NCBI GenBank assembly: GCA_945878025.1
Contig: CAMDXM010000001.1
Coordinates: 2,109 to 66,108, forward strand
DNA from: Pseudorhodoplanes sinuspersici
GTDB taxonomy: Bacteria > Pseudomonadota > Alphaproteobacteria > Rhizobiales > Xanthobacteraceae
Length of the DNA: 64,000 nucleotides
Direction of reading: 5' to 3'
Part shown: positions 6,017-52,093 of the stretch, piece by piece
Layout of the letters: every line of letters starts with the position of its first letter
Position numbering within the stretch: the first letter of the stretch is position 1
Made by a program: the position numbers and the translations under genes
The notes under the pieces: generated by a model
Database searches by the model: none
The model's input: only the letters and a program-made list of their open reading frames with translations
Told to the model about the DNA's origin: nothing

Positions 6017-6905
6017 GCACCGCCGCTTTGCGCCGGTGCTTCGTGCTCTCCTCCTCGACATAATCGAGGTCCTGGTCGAACACGATGCGCTCGATGCCGG
6101 CAAGCGCCACGAACCGCTTGCCGCGGGCGCGGCCGATCAGCGTGAGATTGGCCTTGCGGGCGAGCTCCACGCCCCAGGCGGTGAAGCCGGAGCGCGAGAC
6201 GAGAATCGGAATGCCCATGCGCACGGTCTTGATCACCATTTCGGAGGTGAGACGGCCGGTGGTGTAGAAAATCTTGTCGCTCGCCGATACTTTTTCCTTG
6301 AACATCCAGCCCGCGATCTTGTCGACCGCGTTGTGGCGGCCGACGTCTTCCATATAGACGAGGGCGCGGTCTTCCTTCGCCAGCACGCAGCCATGAATGG
6401 CGCCGGCTTCGAGATAGAGCGACGGCGTGGTGTTGATCGTCTGCGTCAGCGCATAAAGCCACGAGGTGCGGAATTCCGTCGACGGCAGCGACACGCCGTC
6501 GAGCGCCTCCATCAGATCGCCGAACACGGTGCCCTGCGCGCAGCCCGAGGTCTGCACGCGCTTCTTCATCTTCTGCTCGTAATCGGTCGCGCGTTCGGTA
6601 CGCACCACGACCACGCTCAATTCCTCGTCGTAATCGACGCCGGTGACCTTGTCGTCCGGCTGCAGCATGCCCTGATTGAGCAGATATCCGGTCGCGAGAT
6701 AGTCCGGATGATCGGCGATGGTCATCGCGGTCACGATCTCCTGCGAATTGAGGAAGATCGTGAGCGCGCGCTCGACGGTCACCAATGTCTCGATGGGCGC
6801 GCCGGTCTGGTCGACGCCTGAGACACGCTCGGTCAGCCGCGGATCGTGCGGATCTGGCTTGAGCAGATAATCGTCGCGCGCGCGCGCCATCCCGTTTTTG
6901 CTCAT
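6006..6905 (-). CDS. fdhD: Formate dehydrogenase accessory sulfurtransferase
   Basis: SGCAQG, TGAIHGC-like [28 protein letters not shown]; start set at the ATG at 6905, overlapping the ybaB stop (ATGA). Confidence 0.93.
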
Positions 6906-7225
6906 CCAAACAGATTGAGGCCGGGCGGAAGCGGCAGGCCGCCGGTCAATTGCTTCATCTTTTCGGCCATCACGCCTTCGGATTTCTTCCTGGCGTCGGC
7001 ATGGGCGGCGACCAGAAGATCCTCGAGAATCTCTTTCTCGTCGGCCTTCATCAGCGACGCATCGATCCGCACGCCTTTCATGTCGCCTTTTGCGGTCAGG
7101 GTTACGCCGACCACCCCGCCGCCGGCGACACCCTCGACCTCGATGGTGTCGAGTTCGGCCTGCAGCGCCTTCATCTTGGCCTGAAGCTGCGCCGCCTGTT
7201 TCATCATTCCCATCAAGTCGGCCAT
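6902..7225 (-). CDS. ybaB: YbaB/EbfC nucleoid-associated protein
   Basis: MKQA..LQ.KM, GGG.V, D.EILEDL..AA; directly downstream of dnaX. Confidence 0.95.
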
Positions 7226-7234
7226 AGGTCCTTC

Positions 7235-9052
7235 TCAATCGTTCTCGGATTCGGGAGCGGGCATGGTCTCGTCATCGCCCGCGGGTCTTGCCTCTGTGTC
7301 GCCGCGCACGGCCACGATCTCCGCGCCCGGAAAGCGGTCGAGCACCGCCTGCACCAGCGGGTCGGCGCGCACGCCGCGCTTGCGCTCGGCGTCCTGCGCA
7401 TCGGCTTGCGCCTTGAGCGTCGATGCTCCGGCCTCGCGCGACACGATCACCATCCATTGGCGGCCGGTCCAGGCCGACAGCTTGCGCGACAATTCGTTGA
7501 CCAGCGTTTTGGTTGCGCCCGGCTCGAGCGCGATTTCGAGCTTGCCGTCCTCGCAATGCACGAGCCGCATGTCGCGTTCGAGCGCGGCCTTCATTTGCAG
7601 GTCGCGCTTGTCCGCCGCCAACGCCACCAGATCCTCGAAACGGCCGATCCGCAGAGCGGCGGTTTCCGGCGCGCCATCGGGCAAGCGCGCAACCGGGCTT
7701 GCGGCCGGCGACAGGGCCGCACGCGGCGCACCGCGTGGCGCGTCGAGCCGGGGCGCCGCCGCGCCCGTCACGTTCGGCATGGCGCCGCCACCGTTGCCAA
7801 TATTGCCATTTTGCGGACGCGTACCGGCCGACGCCGAGCCGTTTCCAATCGAACGCACCACTTCATCCGGCGTCGGCAAATCGGCCGCATAGGCGATGCG
7901 CACCAGCACCATCTCGGCGGCGGCGACCGGACGGCCGGCGGCCTGCACTTCGGCGATGCCTTTGAGCAGCATCTGCCAGGTGCGCGACAGAACGCGCATC
8001 GACAATGTGGCCGCGAAAGCGCGCCCGCGCACCCGCTCGGCTTCCGCGAGCGAGAGGTCGTCGGCGACCGCTGGAACGATTTTCACGCGCGTCACAAAAT
8101 GTGTGAATTCGGCGAGGTCGGTCAGGATCACCGCCGGGTCCGCGCCGGAATCGTATTGATCGCGCAATTCGGCGAGCGCCGCCGCGATGTCGCCGCGCAA
8201 GAGCGCGTCGAACAGATCGACCACGCGCGCGCGATCGGCAAGTCCCAGCATCTGCCGCACATGCTCGGCTTTCACCGGTCCCGCCGCATGCGCGATGGCT
8301 TGATCGAATAATGAAAGTGAGTCGCGCACCGAACCTTCCGCGGCGCGCGCGATCAGCGCCAAGGCTGCCGGCTCGACGGAGATGTTTTCTTTTCCGGCGA
8401 TGTTCCCGAGATGCTCCACAAGCATGCCCGCCTCGACGCGGCGCAGATCAAAGCGCTGGCAGCGCGACAGCACCGTGATCGGCACCTTGCGGATTTCGGT
8501 CGTGGCGAAGACGAATTTCGCGTGCGGCGGCGGCTCTTCCAGCGTTTTCAAAAGCGCGTTGAATGCCGCGGGCGACAGCATGTGCACTTCGTCGAGGATA
8601 TAAACTTTATAGCGCGCACTCACCGGCGCGTAGCGCACGGCGTCGTTGATCTGGCGGACATCATCGACACTGTTGTGGGACGCGGCGTCCATTTCCAGAA
8701 CGTCGATATGCCGGCTTTCCATGATCGCCTGGCAATTCACGCCAAGCGCCGGCATCGAAATGGTTGGGCCGGGTATCGATCCGTCCGGCAATTGGTAATT
8801 CAGCGCGCGCGCGAGAATGCGCGCGGTCGTGGTCTTGCCGACCCCGCGCACGCCGGTGAGAATCCAAGCCTGCGGAATGCGTCCGGTTTCGAACGCGTTC
8901 GAGACGGTGCGGACCATCGCGTCCTGCCCGATCAGATCGTCGAATGTGGCGGGGCGGTATTTGCGCGCAAGAACGCGGTATACGGCGGAATCGGAGCCAG
9001 CCGGCGCGGCCGGACCGGAACTTTCGCGCGAACGGCTCTTGGCGTCGCTCAT
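7235..9052 (-). CDS. dnaX: DNA polymerase III subunit gamma/tau
   Basis: VLARKYRP..F.DLIGQ, GVRGVGKTT, DAAS, DEVHMLS, SRCQRF; start set at MSDAK (9052). Confidence 0.97.
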   Translation of the reverse strand: MSDAKSRSRESSGPAAPAGSDSAVYRVLARKYRPATFDDLIGQDAMVRTVSNAFETGRIPQAWILTGVRGVGKTTTARILARALNYQLPDGSIPGPTISMPALGVNCQAIMESRHIDVLEMDAASHNSVDDVRQINDAVRYAPVSARYKVYILDEVHMLSPAAFNALLKTLEEPPPHAKFVFATTEIRKVPITVLSRCQRFDLRRVEAGMLVEHLGNIAGKENISVEPAALALIARAAEGSVRDSLSLFDQAIAHAAGPVKAEHVRQMLGLADRARVVDLFDALLRGDIAAALAELRDQYDSGADPAVILTDLAEFTHFVTRVKIVPAVADDLSLAEAERVRGRAFAATLSMRVLSRTWQMLLKGIAEVQAAGRPVAAAEMVLVRIAYAADLPTPDEVVRSIGNGSASAGTRPQNGNIGNGGGAMPNVTGAAAPRLDAPRGAPRAALSPAASPVARLPDGAPETAALRIGRFEDLVALAADKRDLQMKAALERDMRLVHCEDGKLEIALEPGATKTLVNELSRKLSAWTGRQWMVIVSREAGASTLKAQADAQDAERKRGVRADPLVQAVLDRFPGAEIVAVRGDTEARPAGDDETMPAPESEND

Positions 9053-9132
9053 CCTGCCTCCGGCGCCGCGTGATCTTGATTTTTGGGTGCCGGGCGGCGC
9101 GGTCCGCACATTCCGCAAAAAAATACAAAGGT

Positions 9133-9228
9133 GGGAGGCTGACGAGCGACCCGAACCGGAGCTCGTTAGGGCTGCTTCCTTCCGGACCTGACCCGGTTGG
9201 CGAGTGGCTCGTCCACCGCCAACCTCCC
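9133..9228 (-). ncRNA. ffs: Signal recognition particle 4.5S RNA
   Basis: Minus strand contains the conserved domain IV GGTCAGGTCCGGAAGGAAGCAGCC, closed by GGGAGG/CCTCCC; canonical position upstream of dnaX. Confidence 0.97.
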
Positions 9229-44524: not shown

Positions 44525-44549
44525 CGCAAGTCGGCCAGGCCGACTTGCG
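44525..44549. repeat. Single hairpin of repeat family B
   Basis: CGCAAGTCGGC-cag-GCCGACTTGCG. Confidence 0.7.
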
Positions 44550-44578: not shown

Positions 44579-47059
44579 CTATTGCCCGCGTGGCTTGACG
44601 CGCCGCGTCGGCATGGCCGAGGCGGGATCGTCCGGCCAGGGATGGCGCGGATAACGGCCCTTCATTTCCGATTTCACCGCCTGCCAGGAGCCGCCCCAGA
44701 AGCCCGGCAGATCGCGCGTCACCTGCACCGGCCGTTGCGCGGGCGACAGCAATTCGATCACCAGCGGCACGCGCCCGCCGGCGATGGACGGATGATGGCC
44801 GAGGCCAAACAATTCCTGCACACGAATGGAAATCGTCGGCCCCGCTTCGGCCGCGTAGTCGATCGCAGCCTGCGTACCCGTCGGCGCCTGGAAATGGGAG
44901 GGGGCTTCCTCGTCGAGACGGCGGCGCAGATTCCACGGCAACAGATTTGTGACCGCATTCCAGAGATCGTCCGCCGCGATGCCGGACAAAGCGGTCTTTC
45001 CATCGCATAAAGGCGTCAGCCATTCCTCCGGCCGTTCCGCAAGCGCGGCATCCGAAAGATCCGGCCATTCCTCGCCCTCGGCATTGCGCAAAAACATTTC
45101 ACGTTCGCGCCATTGCGACAGCGCCTTGGTCCAGGGCAAACGCGAAAGACCGAGCTTCACCACGCCCTCAGCCAGAATGCGCGCGGTTGACTCGTCCGGC
45201 TTCACCGCCACGATCTGCTCGGAGAGCGCGATCGCGTCGAGCCTGCGCGCCTTGCGCGCGCGCAACGACGCGCTCGCCGGATCGAAATTGACCTCGTCGC
45301 GGCTTTCGATCTCGTTCGCAAAGCGCTGCTCGATCTCGCTCACGGCAATCGGCGCGGCCAACAGAATGCGGCTTTGCGCGGCGGTGCCGGTCAGTTCGGC
45401 GACAACGATGAAGGGTTCGCGTGCGAGCGCCAAGGCCGGATCGATCTGCGCGCCGCGGCCGTTGGCGAGCTGAAATCCACCCGTCCCGCCGCCGCGATTG
45501 CGCGCAACGCGGTCGGGATAGGCGAGCGCCAATATGGCGCCGACCGACGGTCCGTCAGCGCTGTCTTTCTTGCCGCCGGCCTCTTCTGCTTCTTGCGCCC
45601 AGCGTTTCGCCATGCGTCGCGCGTCTTCGGCGCGGCCGGAGCGCTCGCGGCGGAATTGATCGAGGCGATGGGTCAAATCCACGTCGGTGCCGCCCAGGCC
45701 CCGTTCGCTCAGGATCGCCGCCATGTCGGCGGCGATGTTTCCCGCGCCCTCGCGTCCGGCATCCACGATCATACGGGCGAGGCGCGGTTGCAGCGGCAGC
45801 GCGCGCAGCTTGCGGCCCTCCTCGGTGATACGGCCATCGGCGTCGAGCGCGCTCAACGTTCGCAGCAGCGATTTCGCCTCGGTGAATGCCCCCTGTGGCG
45901 GGGGATCGAGAAACGAGAGCTTGGCCGGATCGTTCACGCCCCATTGCGCCAGATCGAGCGCGAAGGACGAAAGGTCGGCGGCGAGGATTTCCGGGCGCGC
46001 GAAGGGCTCAAGGCTCGCTGTTTCCGGCTCGTCCCAAAGCCGATAGCAAAAGCCAGGCTCGGTGCGACCCGCGCGTCCACGCCGCTGGTCGGCGGAGGCG
46101 CGCGAAACGCGCACGGTTTCAAGCCGCGTCAGCCCGACATCCGGCTCATAACGCGGCACGCGCGCGAGCCCGCAATCGATCACAATACGAACGCCCTCGA
46201 TGGTGAGCGAGGTTTCCGCGATGGAGGTTGCCAGCACGATCTTGCGTGTGCCCGGCCGCGCGGGCGAAATGGCGCGATCCTGCACGCTGGCGTCGAGCGC
46301 GCCGTAGAGCGAAACGATATCGACGGATTTGTCCTCGATGCGCTGTCTCAGCATTGTCTCGGTTCGCCGGATTTCGCCCGCGCCCGGAAGGAACACCAGC
46401 AGCGATCCGCCTTGCGCACGCAGCGCGCGCACAACGGCATCCGCGACCTGACGTTCTATTTGCGCGCGCGGATCGCGGCCGAGATAACTGGTTTCAACCG
46501 GAAAGGCGCGGCCTTCGCTTTCGATCACCGGAGCACCGCCCAGGAGCTTCGCCACGCGCGCGCCGTCGAGCGTCGCCGACATGACCAGAATTTTCAGATC
46601 CTCGCGCAAGCCCTGCTGCGCGTCGCGGGCAAGCGCCAGGCCGAGATCGGCATCGAGCGAGCGTTCATGGAATTCATCGAACAGCACGGCAGCAATGCCG
46701 GACAATTCCGGATCGCCGAGAATGAGGCGGGTGAAAATGCCTTCGGTCACGACTTCGATGCGGGTCGCACGCGATACCTTGGAACCAAAGCGCACACGCA
46801 AGCCCACGGTCTCGCCGACCTTCTCGCCTAAGGTCGCAGCCATGCGTTCGGCGGCGGCGCGCGCTGCGAGCCGGCGTGGCTCCAGCACGATGATTTTTTT
46901 GCCTTTGGTCCAAGTTTCTTGCGCAAGCACCAGCGGCACGCGCGTGGTCTTGCCCGCGCCCGGCGGCGCCACCAGCACGGCGGCATTCTGCTTGGCGAGC
47001 GCGCCGGTCAGTCGCGGCAGAACGGCGTCGATCGGAAGGGATGTGTCGAAGGTCGGCAT
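44579..47059 (-). CDS. hrpB: ATP-dependent RNA helicase HrpB
   Basis: APPGAGKTT, EPRRLAA, DEFHERS, MSATL, ATSIAETSLTI, QR.GRAGR, RYPRHPWP. Confidence 0.97.
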   Translation of the reverse strand: MPTFDTSLPIDAVLPRLTGALAKQNAAVLVAPPGAGKTTRVPLVLAQETWTKGKKIIVLEPRRLAARAAAERMAATLGEKVGETVGLRVRFGSKVSRATRIEVVTEGIFTRLILGDPELSGIAAVLFDEFHERSLDADLGLALARDAQQGLREDLKILVMSATLDGARVAKLLGGAPVIESEGRAFPVETSYLGRDPRAQIERQVADAVVRALRAQGGSLLVFLPGAGEIRRTETMLRQRIEDKSVDIVSLYGALDASVQDRAISPARPGTRKIVLATSIAETSLTIEGVRIVIDCGLARVPRYEPDVGLTRLETVRVSRASADQRRGRAGRTEPGFCYRLWDEPETASLEPFARPEILAADLSSFALDLAQWGVNDPAKLSFLDPPPQGAFTEAKSLLRTLSALDADGRITEEGRKLRALPLQPRLARMIVDAGREGAGNIAADMAAILSERGLGGTDVDLTHRLDQFRRERSGRAEDARRMAKRWAQEAEEAGGKKDSADGPSVGAILALAYPDRVARNRGGGTGGFQLANGRGAQIDPALALAREPFIVVAELTGTAAQSRILLAAPIAVSEIEQRFANEIESRDEVNFDPASASLRARKARRLDAIALSEQIVAVKPDESTARILAEGVVKLGLSRLPWTKALSQWREREMFLRNAEGEEWPDLSDAALAERPEEWLTPLCDGKTALSGIAADDLWNAVTNLLPWNLRRRLDEEAPSHFQAPTGTQAAIDYAAEAGPTISIRVQELFGLGHHPSIAGGRVPLVIELLSPAQRPVQVTRDLPGFWGGSWQAVKSEMKGRYPRHPWPDDPASAMPTRRVKPRGQ

Positions 47060-47083: not shown

Positions 47084-47248
47084 TCCGACCTCATCCTGAG
47101 GAGCGACCCACGCAAGTCGGGTTTACCCGATTTGCGCATATTGATTGCTGATCTCGGGCAAGCCCGAGATCAGTGGGTCGCGTCTCGTAGGATGAGGTCG
47201 GCCTCATCCTTCGAGACGCATTGCTTTGCAATGCTCCTCTGGATGAGG
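47084..47248. repeat. Palindromic repeat family A, copy 2, with a nested family B element (47107-47177)
   Basis: Same termini as 57211-57313; first loop replaced by a double hairpin. Confidence 0.9.
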
Positions 47249-47298
47249 GGCGAAGGGCTGCGCGTGCTTCAAAGAGTTCAATGTTAGCGACGCTCGCC

Positions 47299-47323
47299 AC
47301 CCTCTCCCTCAAGGGGAGAGGGT
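47299..47323. repeat. Hairpin of repeat family F
   Basis: ACCCTCTCCC-tcaag-GGGAGAGGGT; resembles the terminal hairpins of the polA insert. Confidence 0.7.
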
Positions 47324-47354: not shown

Positions 47355-48659
47355 TCATCCGCGTCCGACGCCGGTATAGGAAAATCCGTAACGCGCGACT
47401 TCGTCGGCGCTGTAAACGTTGCGCAGATCGACCACCACCTTCTGCGCCATGATCTCGCCAAGCTTGCGGAAATCGAGCGCGCGGAACTGTTCCCATTCGG
47501 TCACGATCACAAGCGCATCGGCCTTCTCCGCGCAAACATAAGCGTCCGCGCAATAGGCCACATCTTTCAGTTCGCCCTTCGCCTGCTCCATGCCGACCGG
47601 ATCGAACGCGCGCACCTTCGCGCCCATGTCCTGCAACGCCGTGATCAGCGGGATCGACGGCGCCTCGCGCATGTCGTCGGTATTCGGCTTGAAGGTCAGG
47701 CCCAGCACCGCGATGGTCTTGCCGCGCAGATTGCCGCCGAGCGCGGTGGAGACTTTTCGCGCCATCGCGCGCTTGCGCGCGTCGTTGACGGCGGCGACCG
47801 TCTCCACGATGCGGATCGGCGCTTCGTGATCCTGTCCGGTCTTGATCAGCGCCAGCGTGTCCTTCGGAAAGCACGAGCCGCCGTAACCCGGACCGGCATG
47901 CAGAAATTTCGACCCGATGCGGTTGTCGAGCCCGATGCCGCGCGCGATCTCCTGCACGTCGGCCCCCACTTTTTCGGCAAGGTCGGCGATCTCGTTGATG
48001 AACGTGATCTTGGTCGCAAGAAAAGCGTTCGCCGCATATTTGATGAGCTCGGCGGTGCGCCGCCCGGTCATCATGATCGGCGAGGCGTTGAGATAAAGCG
48101 GGCGGTAGATTTCCTCCATCACCTCGCGCGCACGCGCATCCTCGGTGCCGACCACAATGCGGTCGGGATGCTTGAAGTCGCGGATCGCGGCGCCTTCGCG
48201 CAGGAATTCCGGATTGGAGACGACGGCGAATTGCGCATCGCCCCGCGTCTCGCGGATGATGCGCTCGACCTCGTCGCAGGTTCCGACCGGCACGGTCGAT
48301 TTCGTCACAACAACTGTGAAATGCATCAGCGCCTTCGCGATCTCGCGGGCGGCGTCATAGACGTAGCTGAGATCGGCATGGCCATCGCCGCGGCGCGACG
48401 GCGTACCGACCGCGATGAACACGGCGTCGGCTTCGCCCACCGCGCTCTTCAGATCGGTGGTGAAAGACAATCGTCCCTGCGCGGCATTGCGCGCGACCAG
48501 CTCCGGAAGGCCGGGCTCGTAGATCGGCATCTCGCCCTTGCTCAGGCTCGCGATTTTCTTTGCGTCCTTGTCGACGCACACCACGCGATGGCCGAAATCG
48601 GCAAAACAGGCCCCCGACACGAGACCGACATAGCCTGAACCGATCATCGCGACGCGCAT
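47355..48659 (-). CDS. ugd: UDP-glucose 6-dehydrogenase
   Basis: GSGYVG, AVGTP, KSTVP, SNPEFLREG, GYGGSCFPKD, FKPNTDDMRE. Confidence 0.97.
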   Translation of the reverse strand: MRVAMIGSGYVGLVSGACFADFGHRVVCVDKDAKKIASLSKGEMPIYEPGLPELVARNAAQGRLSFTTDLKSAVGEADAVFIAVGTPSRRGDGHADLSYVYDAAREIAKALMHFTVVVTKSTVPVGTCDEVERIIRETRGDAQFAVVSNPEFLREGAAIRDFKHPDRIVVGTEDARAREVMEEIYRPLYLNASPIMMTGRRTAELIKYAANAFLATKITFINEIADLAEKVGADVQEIARGIGLDNRIGSKFLHAGPGYGGSCFPKDTLALIKTGQDHEAPIRIVETVAAVNDARKRAMARKVSTALGGNLRGKTIAVLGLTFKPNTDDMREAPSIPLITALQDMGAKVRAFDPVGMEQAKGELKDVAYCADAYVCAEKADALVIVTEWEQFRALDFRKLGEIMAQKVVVDLRNVYSADEVARYGFSYTGVGRG

Positions 48660-48845
48660 GGGACTTCGATCTTGATGGCTTTTGGGCCGGCCGCTGCCGG
48701 GCGCGGCGTCTTACCAGACAGGGCCGGAACTGGCGAGGCCGGCGCCTGCGCATCGTAAATGGCGGCAATTCCAGTTGAATCCGGTCATGCAGCGGTCCAC
48801 AGGCAGACATTGATAATACGCAGCAGCCGGCCCACATTCGGCGCC

Positions 48846-51800
48846 ATGCCAGCCAAATCAGCCGCCAAAGCTGCAAAAAAAGCTATCCCGACAGCCGCGC
48901 TCGGCGCGCGTCCGATCAAGAAAGGCGACCACGTCTTCCTGGTCGACGGATCGGGCTACATTTTCCGCGCCTATCACGCGCTGCCGCCGCTCAGCCGCAA
49001 ATCCGACGGCTTGCAGGTCAATGCCGTGCTCGGCTTCTGCAACATGCTGTGGAAATTGCTGCGCGATATGAAGCCGGAAGACCGGCCGACGCATCTCGCG
49101 GTGGTGTTCGACAAATCGGAAAAGACGTTCCGCACGGAAATGTATCCCGAATACAAGGCCAACCGCGACGCGCCGCCGGACGACCTCATTCCGCAATTCC
49201 CGCTCATTCGCCACGCGGTGCACGCCTTCGACATCCCCTGCCTCGAACAGGCCGGCTATGAGGCCGACGACCTGATCGCGACCTATGCGCGGCTCGCCAA
49301 CGAGGCGAAGGCAACGACAACGATCGTCTCCTCCGACAAGGATCTGATGCAGCTCGTCGGCCCGACCGTCGTCATGTACGACACCATGAAGGACAAGCGG
49401 ATCGGCCGCGACGAGGTGATCGAGAAATTCGGCGTGCCGCCGGAAAAAGTCATCGAGGTCCAGTCGCTGATCGGCGATACCAGCGACAACGTGCCGGGCG
49501 TGCCGGGCATCGGCGTCAAGACCGCCGCACAATTGATCGGCGAATATGGCGACCTTGAAACGCTGCTGGCGCGCGCCGGCGAGATCAAGCAGGACAAGCG
49601 CCGCCAGACCCTGATCGACAATGCCGAGCAGGCGCGCATCTCCAAGCGCCTGGTCACGCTCGACCAGCATGTCGATCTGCACACGCCGATCGACGACCTC
49701 CTGGTGCACGAGCCGGACTACAAGAACCTGATCGCGTTCCTCAAGGCGATGGAATTTTCCACCCTCACCCGCCGCGTGGCGGAAGCGGCCGAAATCGATG
49801 CCGCGCAGGTCGAGCCGGATTCGCGGCTGGTGTCGAGCAAGGCCCTCATCCCTCCCCTTGCAGGGGAGGGTGGCGCCGCGTCAGCGGCGCCGGGTGGGGT
49901 CACCGCAGACAAGGGCCTCACCCGGCAGCAGCCTTCGGCTGCCACCCTCCCCCTTTCAGGGGGAGGGAAAAGAGAGGCAGCGGCCGGCGACATGACGCCG
50001 ATTTCGCTCGCTGCCGTGCGCGCACAGAAAATCCGCGCCCTGCCGGTCGACCGCTCCAGATACGAGGTCGTGCGCGACCTTGCGCGGCTGAAAGCCTGGA
50101 TGCAGCGCGCGATCGAGGAAGGCGTGCTCGCGGTCGACACCGAGACCACGAGCCTCGATCCGATGCAGGCTACCTTGTGCGGCTTCTCGCTCGCGGTGAC
50201 GCCGAACGAAGCTTGTTACGTGCCGCTGGCGCATCGCAAGAACGGCGCCGATGAAGGGTTATTCGACGGCGGCCTCGAGGACCACCAGATTCTCGAAAAA
50301 GATGCGATCGACGCGATCAAGCCGGTGCTGGAAGATCCCGGCATCCTCAAAGTCGGCCAGAACCTGAAATTCGACTGGCAGGTATTCTCCCAGCGCGGTA
50401 TTTCCATCGCTCCGCTCGACGACACCATGCTGCAATCCTATGTGCTCGATGCCGGCCGTTCGGATCACGGAATGGATCCGCTCGCGATGCGCTATCTCGA
50501 TCACAAGACGATCGAGTTCAACGAGGTGACCGGCACGGGAAAATCGCGCATCACCTTCGACTGCGTGGAGATCGGCAAGGCGTCCGAATATGCCGCGGAA
50601 GACGCCGACATCACGCTGCGGCTGTGGCTTGCGATCAAGCCGCGGCTCGCCGCCGAGCATATGACCAGCGTGTATGAGACGCTGGAGCGGCCGATGGTGC
50701 CGGTGCTGGCGCGCATGGAGCAGCGCGGCATTTCCATCGACCGGCAAGTGCTGGCGCGGCTCTCTGGCGAATTCGCAAAAGATGCCGAACGCCTCGAACA
50801 GGAGATCCAGAAGCTCGCGGGGCAACCGGTGAATCCCGGAAGCCCGAAGCAACTCGGCGACGTGCTGTTCGGTTCGCTCGGCCTGCCCGGCGGCACCAAA
50901 ACAAAAACCGGCGCGTGGTCGACTTCGGCCTCCGTGCTCGAGGATCTTGCCGAAGCAGGCCACGAATTGCCGCAGAAAATTCTCGACTGGCGGCAGGTCA
51001 GTAAACTGCGCTCGACCTATACCGACGCGCTGCCGAATTTCGTCAATCCGAAAACACAGCGCGTGCACACAAGCTACGCGCTGGCGGCGACCACCACCGG
51101 CCGGCTGTCTTCCTCCGAGCCGAATCTGCAGAATATTCCGGTGCGCAACGAACAAGGCCGGAAAATTCGTCGCGCCTTCATCGCCGCCAAGGGCAACAAG
51201 CTCGTCTCAGCCGACTATTCGCAGATCGAATTGCGCCTGCTTGCCGAAATTGCCGACGTGCCGGCGCTCCGCCAAGCCTTCAAGGACGGCATCGACATTC
51301 ATGCTTTGACGGCGTCGGAAATGTTCGGCGTACCGGTGAAGGACATGCCAGGCGACGTGCGCCGGCGTGCCAAGGCGATCAATTTCGGAATCATCTACGG
51401 CATCTCGGCCTTCGGGCTCGCCAACCAGCTCGGCATCGCACGCGAGGAGGCTGGCGCTTATATCAAAAAGTATTTCGAGCGCTTTCCCGGCATTCGCGCT
51501 TACATGGACGAGACGCGCGAATTCTGCCGCGAACACGGCTACGTGGTCACGCTGTTCGGCCGCAAGTGTCATTACCCCGACATCAAGGCCAGCAATCCGT
51601 CGATACGCTCATTCAATGAGCGCGCCGCAATCAATGCGCGGCTGCAGGGTTCCGCCGCCGACATCATCCGCCGCGCCATGATCCGCATGGACGATGCGCT
51701 CGCCAAGGCCAAGCTCTCGGCGCAGATGCTTTTACAGGTTCATGACGAACTGATCTTCGAGGTGCCGGAGAAGGAAGTGGAGCGCACGCTTCCGGTCGTG

Positions 51801-51899
51801 AAAAAAGTCATGGAAGACGCGCCGCATCCGGCTTTGCAGCTGCATGTTCCGCTGCAGGTCGATGCACGGGCGGCGGATAACTGGGACGAGGCGCATTAG
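48846..51899 (+). CDS. polA: DNA polymerase I
   Basis: 5'-3' exonuclease (LVDGSGYIFRAYHA), 3'-5' exonuclease (VDTETT), polymerase motifs SADYSQIELR, KAINFGIIYG, QVHDEL; start set at MPAK (48846). Confidence 0.98.
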   Translation: MPAKSAAKAAKKAIPTAALGARPIKKGDHVFLVDGSGYIFRAYHALPPLSRKSDGLQVNAVLGFCNMLWKLLRDMKPEDRPTHLAVVFDKSEKTFRTEMYPEYKANRDAPPDDLIPQFPLIRHAVHAFDIPCLEQAGYEADDLIATYARLANEAKATTTIVSSDKDLMQLVGPTVVMYDTMKDKRIGRDEVIEKFGVPPEKVIEVQSLIGDTSDNVPGVPGIGVKTAAQLIGEYGDLETLLARAGEIKQDKRRQTLIDNAEQARISKRLVTLDQHVDLHTPIDDLLVHEPDYKNLIAFLKAMEFSTLTRRVAEAAEIDAAQVEPDSRLVSSKALIPPLAGEGGAASAAPGGVTADKGLTRQQPSAATLPLSGGGKREAAAGDMTPISLAAVRAQKIRALPVDRSRYEVVRDLARLKAWMQRAIEEGVLAVDTETTSLDPMQATLCGFSLAVTPNEACYVPLAHRKNGADEGLFDGGLEDHQILEKDAIDAIKPVLEDPGILKVGQNLKFDWQVFSQRGISIAPLDDTMLQSYVLDAGRSDHGMDPLAMRYLDHKTIEFNEVTGTGKSRITFDCVEIGKASEYAAEDADITLRLWLAIKPRLAAEHMTSVYETLERPMVPVLARMEQRGISIDRQVLARLSGEFAKDAERLEQEIQKLAGQPVNPGSPKQLGDVLFGSLGLPGGTKTKTGAWSTSASVLEDLAEAGHELPQKILDWRQVSKLRSTYTDALPNFVNPKTQRVHTSYALAATTTGRLSSSEPNLQNIPVRNEQGRKIRRAFIAAKGNKLVSADYSQIELRLLAEIADVPALRQAFKDGIDIHALTASEMFGVPVKDMPGDVRRRAKAINFGIIYGISAFGLANQLGIAREEAGAYIKKYFERFPGIRAYMDETREFCREHGYVVTLFGRKCHYPDIKASNPSIRSFNERAAINARLQGSAADIIRRAMIRMDDALAKAKLSAQMLLQVHDELIFEVPEKEVERTLPVVKKVMEDAPHPALQLHVPLQVDARAADNWDEAH
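49850..49967. repeat. Family F palindromic element inside the polA ORF
   Basis: Five hairpins bounded by CCCTCCCC/GGGGAGGG stems at both ends; read in frame. Confidence 0.85.
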
Positions 51900-51921: not shown

Positions 51922-52093
51922 GTCATGGCCGGACTTGTTCCAGCCATCCACGTCTTGCTTTGCCGCGACATCCAAGAAAGACGTGGATGGCATCGGAAGT
52001 CGGGCTTGCCCGACTTCCGTGTAATTTAATGTCGCAAGTCGGGTATACCCGACTTGCGATGTCTTCGCGCTACGCGCTTCGTCCGGCCATGAC
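51922..52093. repeat. Palindromic repeat family C with a nested family B element (51991-52061)
   Basis: 13-bp perfect IR GTCATGGCCGGAC/GTCCGGCCATGAC; internal CCATCCACGTC/GACGTGGATGG stem. Confidence 0.9.

Follow-up and report, generated by a model that had tools for sequence, protein, structure and literature searches.

Palindromic repeats translated as part of a bacterial protein are already known, and in-frame repeats of this kind have been described in the interdomain linker of DNA polymerase I itself. Di Nocera et al. 2013 (PMC3733652) report that intragenic repetitive extragenic palindromes (REPs) are concentrated in replication and repair genes, and its Additional file 3 lists a CGTC-3 dimer in the PolA of Rhodopseudomonas palustris (RPE_4821, residues 338-367 of 1012, VMAGLDPAIH...NPRVKPAGD) and a CGTC-1 dimer in that of Micavibrio (MICA_2230, residues 304-325). 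The Rickettsia palindromic elements (RPEs) are a further precedent: described by Ogata et al. 2000 and 2002 and summarised in PMC10969869, they are palindromes of 100-150 bp that lie in-frame in housekeeping genes, encode a conserved peptide and occupy positions compatible with the fold of the host protein. Finally, REP doublets forming hairpins (REPINs), or bacterial interspersed mosaic elements of type 1 (BIME-1), consist of two inverted REPs with a short spacer and can be folded into one long hairpin (PMC3337134, PMC2817692, PMC3333891). Here we describe a palindromic repeat within polA, on a stretch of 64,000 nucleotides (contig CAMDXM010000001.1, positions 2,109 to 66,108, forward strand; called the window below) from an uncultured soil/lake alphaproteobacterium.

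We think it likely that positions 49848-49968 of the window hold a non-autonomous REPIN/BIME-like repeat, vertically inherited and carried in-frame in the polA tether, with a probably neutral effect on the protein. The doublet would belong to a superfamily spread across Xanthobacteraceae-like genomes, mostly intergenic and recurring in the interdomain linkers of polA and hrpB. The ancestor common with lineages of 82-85% PolA identity would already have carried it, and units at the polA site would since have been repeatedly kept, exchanged for those of other families (giving heterodimers) or left to decay. Their arrival and exchange may have occurred by transposition, with the help of some enzyme, or by gene conversion from other copies. 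The element would be translated as a disordered stretch of 40 residues rich in Pro, Gly, Ala and Ser, in a tether that measures about 100 aa family-wide. The most likely picture is thus that of a selfish or commensal REP-like doublet residing in a permissive disordered tether.

Anatomy of the doublet and its place in PolA

The gene, the element and its parts are as follows.

48846-51899, plus strand: polA (DNA polymerase I), 1017 aa counted from the Met at 48846
49848-49968, plus strand: the complete repeat, 121 nt in length, made up of two REP-like units in inverted orientation, with ends ATCCCTCCCC...GGGGGAGGGA(T)
49848-49899, plus strand: left unit, AT + H1 + TGG + H2 + G-rich tail GGGTGGGG
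49850-49870: hairpin H1, arms CCCTCCCCT / AGGGGAGGG
49872-49891: hairpin H2, arms GGCGCCGC / GCGGCGCC
49890-49899 with 49916-49925: H3, long-range, one G-T mismatch, arms CCGGGTGGGG / CCTCACCCGG
49900-49915, plus strand: spacer of 16 nt, also the loop of H3, TCACCGCAGACAAGGG
49916-49968, plus strand: right unit, repeating the left one in inverted orientation, C-rich tail CCTCACCCGG + H4 + CCA + H5 + A
49928-49942: hairpin H4, arms GCAGCC / GGCTGC
49945-49967: hairpin H5, arms CCCTCCCCCT / AGGGGGAGGG

All five hairpins that the initial annotation had placed between 49850 and 49967 are present, but they are not independent of one another. Since the right half repeats the left half in inverted orientation, they reduce to two hairpins in each of two units of about 52 nt, plus the pairing of the left unit's G-rich tail with the right unit's C-rich tail across the spacer. 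The plan of a unit is AT + CCCTCCCC-loop-GGGGAGGG + TGG + a variable second hairpin + CC + GGGTGGGG. Two details had to be adjusted: H4, first given as AGCC/GGCT, is longer, and the outer boundaries, between which the sequence is as it had been described, move slightly outwards when polA copies are compared with copies outside polA (intergenic, at the loci L089 and L094), a comparison that sets the ends at ATCCCTCCCC...GGGGGAGGGAT. The element therefore has the plan of a REPIN or BIME-1, namely two inverted REP-like units with a spacer.

The left unit and the reverse complement of the right unit are identical at 43/57 positions, with an alignment score of 49, the score in 1000 shuffles being -1.6 +/- 6.6 with a maximum of 22. 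Folded as RNA, the segment 49840-49980 reaches -104 kcal/mol against -66.7 +/- 4.0 for shuffles (z -9.3), and in the minimum free energy fold the two halves of the element pair together. The pattern CCCTCYCC-loop-GGRGAGGG is found three times in the 64-kb window, versus none in 100 shuffles. A five-helix consensus structure runs through 12 aligned copies, all of which (12/12) have the unit ends ATCCCTCCCC and GGGTGGGG; H4 varies in sequence among copies with its pairing kept, 5/6 of its pairs being altered on both sides in at least one copy. Terminal inverted repeats are present (ATCCCTCCCC...GGGGAGGGAT) and are longer in many polA copies (TTCTATCCC.../...GGGATAGAA). No intrinsic terminator or promoter was found on the sense strand at the element. 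We also considered an intron, an intein or programmed excision and rejected all three, as Rfam gives no intron match, no open reading frame (ORF) resembling an intein is present, and the frame of the peptide is conserved in orthologues.

The long ORF with polA runs from 48759 to 51899 (plus strand) and is open for 29 codons (48759-48845) before the Met at 48846, from which PolA residues are numbered here; this Met is the likelier start, given that orthologues begin at MPAK or MPT. The element makes up exactly 40 codons, PolA residues 335-374, and reads in the polA frame without stops as IPPLAGEGGAASAAPGGVTADKGLTRQQPSAATLPLSGGG, exactly as in the initial annotation. It is open in 3/3 sense frames, and in 4/6 frames in all, so that its survival within the gene needs only a length free of frameshifts.

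The proposed location between the 5'-nuclease and the 3'-5' exonuclease/Klenow part is also correct. Four Pfam domains, all intact despite the element, are recognised in PolA (5_3_exonuc_N 30-196, 5_3_exonuc 197-292, DNA_pol_A_exo1 406-601 and DNA_pol_A 634-1015), and the element lies in the gap free of Pfam domains, residues 293-405; the alignment with the E. coli Klenow fragment begins at residue 404. In an AlphaFold2 model of moderate overall quality (mean predicted local distance difference test, pLDDT, of 63), residues 319-386 form a coil of pLDDT 24-33 that sits between the last 5'-nuclease helix and the first helix before the 3'-5' exonuclease. Because the peptide falls in a linker that is predicted to be disordered and contains no Pfam domain, its effect on the enzyme is probably neutral; the tethers of relatives tolerate wholesale replacement. 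The frame is intact and the domains downstream of the element are conserved, from which we infer that the element is translated; the tryptic peptides predicted from the window linker are ALIPPLAGEGGAASAAPGGVTADK and QQPSAATLPLSGGGK.

Descent of the doublet and conservation of its stems

The repeat is not a fresh insertion in this genome. Orthologous copies exist in lineages that have 82-85% PolA identity to the window (82% in L002 and 85% in L003). The window spacer is homologous with those of L002 and L003 (69-75% identity over the H3-loop columns) and unrelated to the spacers of L098, L089 and L094; over the non-stem columns of the element as a whole (spacer and loops), the window is 65-69% identical to L002 and L003. 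An orthologous copy is also present in L001 (PolA 88% identical outside the linker), in which the right unit survives, H4 being identical and H5 having compensatory changes that make it CGCTCCCCC/GGGGGAGCG, while the left-unit stems are lost. The spacer shared with L002 and L003, together with the L001 copy, indicates that the doublet predates these splits, so that, as judged from these alignments, its presence in the window lineage is vertical inheritance and not a new insertion. The loss of the left-unit stems in L001 further indicates that the doublet is dispensable.

The stems have behaved very differently from the rest of the element. Compared with the window, they are identical at 69/70 columns in L002, 67/70 in L003 and 67/70 in L098, and the third codon positions within stems at 23/23, 21/23 and 22/23, respectively (P for stems and third positions: 5e-13 and 3e-5 for L002, 4e-11 and 2e-3 for L003, 3e-10 and 5e-4 for L098). 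Third positions elsewhere in polA are identical at a proportion of 0.62-0.64, that is, saturated, and the non-stem columns of the element at 0.52-0.69 in the same three comparisons. The stems of intergenic copies from other genera are the same, also outside the core sequence by which they were ascertained. Third positions that are nearly frozen point to a constraint on the nucleic acid and not on the PolA protein, for which selection on a structure or binding site and homogenisation against other copies are the candidate causes.

Could the doublet then be functional at the nucleic-acid level, as a protein-binding site or as an RNA or DNA structure in polA that is kept by selection? One may think of a REP-type site for Pol I, IHF or gyrase, of a site for an enzyme resembling the REP-associated tyrosine transposases (RAYTs), or of the pacing of transcription or translation at a domain boundary. 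Stems that are 96-99% identical, with 21-23 of 23 third positions retained in spite of saturated synonymous sites, are what such an explanation would predict; loops, spacer and H4 drift in a neutral-like manner, with covariation in H4, the same stems recur in intergenic copies of other genera, and E. coli REPs have been reported to interact with DNA polymerase I (PMC2817692), which we take here as a lead only. Nevertheless, we consider this explanation rather improbable: the closest relatives (P0002-P0008 and L001) have lost the left-unit hairpins with polA intact, other relatives have quite different unit families or none at the site, and the element contains no sense-strand terminator. We also regard as unlikely, for the time being, the idea that the doublets of polA and hrpB have persisted for long as "safe-harbour" or master copies from which a REP-like superfamily is maintained, with stems selected at the DNA or RNA level, perhaps through binding of a cellular factor such as a RAYT-like enzyme or Pol I. 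If this were true, polA would contain a site bound by the polymerase that it encodes (Pol I being a candidate binder since E. coli REPs are reported to bind it) or by the enzyme that mobilises the repeat, and the polA site would be a hub for exchange between unit families.

Turnover in the linker and copies outside polA

Our PolA set consisted of the 120 best orthologues (75-87% identity, 987-1127 aa) and 87 loci, about 200 in all. The linker peptides of the 120 orthologues fall into five types, with hybrids and remnants.

Type A (window type): IPPLQGEGGAAPAAPGGV...TLPLSGGG
Type B: PPPLRGRSASEASREGG...PSPTLPHKGGGS
Type C: PPPLAGEVG...PQPSPASGGG
Type D: PPLPPVRPEDG
Type E: VMAGLDPAIH...DPRVKPGGD
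Other states: heterodimers (A-left + B-right, C-left + B-right), tandem or nested cases, eroded remnants

Most relatives have at the polA site either this doublet, another repeat family, a heterodimer or decayed remnants, and in a PolA tree that excludes the linker region these classes are interleaved. Type E is found in P0101, P0112, L011, L012 and L017. Among PolAs that are 90-96% identical, L098 has type A, L095 type B, L096 type C, L099 a C/B heterodimer and L097 no hairpins, all with the same flanks and a common centre, GGCGAnCTGTTYGC. Heterodimers and copy-specific spacers are expected if the unit of about 52 nt, and not the doublet, is the exchangeable module. Linkers with at least one perfect hairpin of at least 8 bp occur at 28/70 homology-ascertained loci, versus 8/70 control polA segments.

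Two side observations concern these linkers. A motif G-D/E-L-F-(A/G)-P-P is conserved in many of the hypervariable PolA linkers, often as the spacer between two units (for instance in L097 10886-11140, L098 8279-8554, P0102, P0106, P0077, L039 and L077), and is absent from that of the window; it resembles the beta-clamp-binding motif, QL[SD]LF. In P0080, the 1127-aa PolA, the left unit is interrupted (IPPLQEPASGRAQARPGWEGGDAPAAPGG), and this looks like an insertion nested in the loop of a type-A H1. A search of the literature on the long rhizobial polA linker retrieved nothing.

The following features of the window bear on dispersal outside polA.

47287-47323, plus strand: solitary partial unit in the intergenic spacer between ugd and hrpB, hairpin GCGA/TCGC + CACC + hairpin ACCCTCTCCC/GGGAGAGGGT
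45545-45595, minus strand: empty hrpB site, residues 489-505, QEAEEAGGKKDSADGPS, where relatives have in-frame doublets
47355-48659, minus strand: ugd, UDP-glucose dehydrogenase (Pfam), neighbour of polA
44579-47059, minus strand: hrpB (Pfam), neighbour of polA

The order of ugd, hrpB and polA is kept in relatives. The partial unit is without a C-rich tail and lies 32 nt 3' of the ugd stop; its hairpin at 47299-47323, in which the initial annotation had recognised a match to the terminal hairpins, is the third occurrence of the pattern in the window and has the lead GCCACC in common with H5; the hairpin itself is real. As the 64 kb contain one doublet and just a single other unit, a partial one, dispersal could be demonstrated only with the DNA of other genomes, and there the proposal of a dispersed family holds. 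The H2-H3 core GGGTGGCGCCGCNNNNGCGGCGCCGGGTGGGG, scanned against 185,579 species genomes, gave 12 matches in 12 metagenome-assembled genomes (MAGs) labelled Xanthobacteraceae, Hyphomicrobiales, Variibacter or Rhodoplanes, of which 9/12 are in the polA linker, in the frame of the window, and 3/12 outside polA: a full-length copy between two ORFs (L089), a full-length copy 37 nt 3' of a 566-aa ORF (L094, Rhodoplanes piscinae) and a single left unit (L091). When related loci totalling about 1.25 Mb were scanned with a regular expression, 35 composite elements built on the same plan came up, and roughly 9-13 composites of the superfamily lie outside polA in these loci, some of them intergenic (L002 3422-3570, L007 13013-13121, L051 9780-9888 and L097 19804-19912).

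In hrpB, in-frame copies occupy one site in L002 (8154-8279, by nhmmer), L095 (593-693) and L098 (4144-4244), with a net gain of 36 aa in L002 and of 28 aa in L098 and L095; the same site is empty in the window, L001 and L097. The filled L098 and the empty L097 are close relatives (PolA 95.7% identical), and filled and empty alleles differ by replacement, not by clean insertion.

Metagenomic contigs from Logan show that H5 sequence exists elsewhere: in those lake-water runs in which the window is present, the depth of contigs rises about 10-fold at H5, and the sequences flanking it there are many and divergent. In four lake/groundwater runs the contigs break between 49808 and 49943, and are too fragmented over the palindrome to reveal an empty allele, so that they only document H5 at other places. 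The contig of L087 (CAYJNT010000427.1) ends inside the doublet, in G/C homopolymer noise. The palindrome thus disrupts short-read assembly. At the protein level, a search for homologues with a 42-aa consensus peptide gave no candidate, a result which says nothing about absence, so short and low-complexity a query being below the sensitivity of the search; likewise, an exhaustive HMMER search with the 40-aa peptide found only the unrelated tandem-repeat P0136 and missed PolA itself, so that absence is not implied.

Several observations weigh against a mobile repeat lodged in polA, and they should be acknowledged. No empty polA allele was found among the 120 protein orthologues or the 87 loci, so that insertion into polA is deduced and not observed. 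Linkers free of hairpins are nearly as long as the others: from KAMEF to VDRS, the means are 98, 101 and 103 aa for linkers with no hairpin, a single hairpin and at least two hairpins, respectively. Type-A copies in polA are all in one orientation and frame, which fits a single ancient event and would leave the long-term constraint on the stems without an explanation. No direct repeats flanking the L089, L094 and polA copies are evident beyond the self-complementary AT. No cognate transposase was identified, the ORFs of the window and of the relatives' loci not having been scanned for RAYT/Y1 domains, and no related autonomous insertion sequence (IS) was recognised, though no IS search was made. 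The exact type-A core is present as one copy in each of the 12 carrier genomes, which are fragmented MAGs, and this weakens gene conversion from paralogues of the same type as the cause of stem conservation. The initial annotation had itself named equally long linkers in hairpin-free orthologues as evidence that would count against its proposal. This is in part what we see, and its statement that the repeat adds about 40 residues must be abandoned; the mobile-repeat reading survives on the other evidence given above.

That the repeat was inserted recently, in this lineage alone, and made a short linker about 40 residues longer is, in our opinion, very unlikely, and has been largely refuted. 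Such an event would account for an element that is intact and of exactly 40 codons, and true filled and empty alleles do exist at the hrpB site for related elements. However, the spacer and loops are homologous with those of L002 and L003, L001 has a decayed orthologous copy with the same H4, empty polA alleles are missing from the whole set, and hairpins hardly lengthen the linker: the interval QVEPD..TP measures 65 aa in the window, 52-59 in the closest relatives and 48-49 in the shortest, which makes a net gain of only 6-13 aa over the nearest relatives. That the linker is native, with palindromes arisen in situ (for instance by template-switch mutations in G+C-rich DNA), or that we are dealing with chance or an assembly artefact, can hardly be believed: the element does occupy the same position in most orthologues with no empty allele, and palindromes can break assemblies (the L087 contig ends in the element), but the 120-nt architecture recurs with identical stems in intergenic DNA of L089 and L094, related families are present in hrpB and other spacers, shuffles never match the fold, the pattern count or the similarity between units, and the element is found in many independent assemblies.

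Some other features of the window may be recorded here. A second, unrelated hairpin family, CGCAAGTCGGG-loop-CCCGACTTGCG, has copies just 3' of hrpB (44525-44549), in the ugd-hrpB spacer (47111-47136) and twice 3' of polA (51994-52019 and 52032-52059); two copies score as terminator-like, and the family looks like a REP-like or terminator repeat. The 295-nt ugd-hrpB spacer contains two more perfect hairpins of 9-11 bp (47148-47173 and 47189-47210). This spacer is absent from L001, where ugd and hrpB abut and where the last 90 or so residues of hrpB (6029-8542) are replaced by an Arg-rich, out-of-frame tail, owing to a frameshift or to an error of assembly. Within the window a single Rfam family reaches its gathering score, the bacterial small signal recognition particle RNA (RF00169, 56 bits), at 9131-9227 on the minus strand.

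Comparison with described repeat systems

[quoted passage not shown] The element resembles them in being small and non-autonomous, with terminal inverted repeats, and MITEs too are sometimes in-frame and provide new peptide segments. It differs in that neither a target-site duplication nor a parent IS was recognised, and a dimer of independent units is a more fitting description of it than a deleted IS.

For the element, no Rfam family attains its gathering score, either in the window or in seven loci scanned likewise. Below that score (37 bits), end-to-end matches to the 56-position model of whalefall-1 (RF01762) are obtained with the left unit on the plus strand (49848-49901, 21.5 bits) and with the right unit on the minus strand (49914-49969, 18.6 bits), as well as in L097 (19863-19915, minus strand, 23.6 bits). 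Sub-threshold matches to Rfam miRNA precursors were set aside as a generic resemblance between long hairpins, whalefall-1 being the only family that shares the architecture of the unit. Weinberg et al. 2010 (PMC2864571) described whalefall-1 as a noncoding RNA that stands by itself, a whale-fall metagenome being its only known source. It has the same order of parts as the window unit, with a CUCUCC/GGAGAG hairpin followed by a second hairpin of variable sequence and then by a GGGUGAGG tail, and, unlike the window unit, was described neither as a repeat nor as coding. On this resemblance, whalefall-1 may itself be a repeat unit of the present superfamily. There is a practical side to this, since segments of this kind break short-read assemblies, yield spurious low-complexity "domains" and resemble a "noncoding RNA" of Rfam.

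The likeness to REPINs is one of principle: the plan is the same, singlets exist too, and the unit sequence is conserved across species. The element is unlike them in having no GTAG head and a low apparent copy number, and in being coding rather than extragenic. The polA linker may be seen as a natural time series for the persistence, exchange and decay of REP/REPIN-like repeats, and the frozen synonymous positions of the stems as a testable anomaly, bearing on whether such repeats are purely selfish, are kept alike through recombination or are of use to the cell that carries them.

The parallel with the Rickettsia elements, drawn in the initial annotation, appears apt to us: the window element is palindromic, in-frame and 121 nt long, and related copies are in-frame in hrpB. 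The hosts differ, being here free-living, G+C-rich Xanthobacteraceae, and in the case of RPEs reduced, A+T-rich intracellular genomes, and the likeness is one by description. RPEs are scattered over dozens of genes, in contrast to the long residence and turnover at two linker sites seen here. Homology of the window element to RPE families is unlikely, to judge from their very different base composition.

The closest comparison is with the PolA dimers of Di Nocera et al. (PMC3733652). These are likewise in-frame inverted dimers of a short palindromic unit, and R. palustris moreover belongs to the same family as the window host; its CGTC-3 dimer corresponds to our type E, at the same polA linker site and with almost the same residue numbers. 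The window unit is longer than the GTAG/CGTC REPs (about 52 nt, with two hairpins and a G-rich tail) and unrelated to them in sequence. The CGTC in its H2 loop is not conserved, other copies having GCCA or GCAA, and we therefore do not place the unit in the GTAG/CGTC families, whose defining tag is absent. At least five families at one site, heterodimers, and conservation of third positions in stems are not found in the part of PMC3733652 available. What seems to be new here is the unit family, the turnover of several families at the polA site with a parallel site in hrpB, and the conservation of synonymous sites in stems. A G+C-rich, free-living bacterial family joins the short list of those in which selfish palindromic repeats have become protein in a core replication and repair enzyme, and it does so not as a one-off, since over family-level divergence several repeat families have settled in the polA and hrpB tethers, replaced one another there and decayed.

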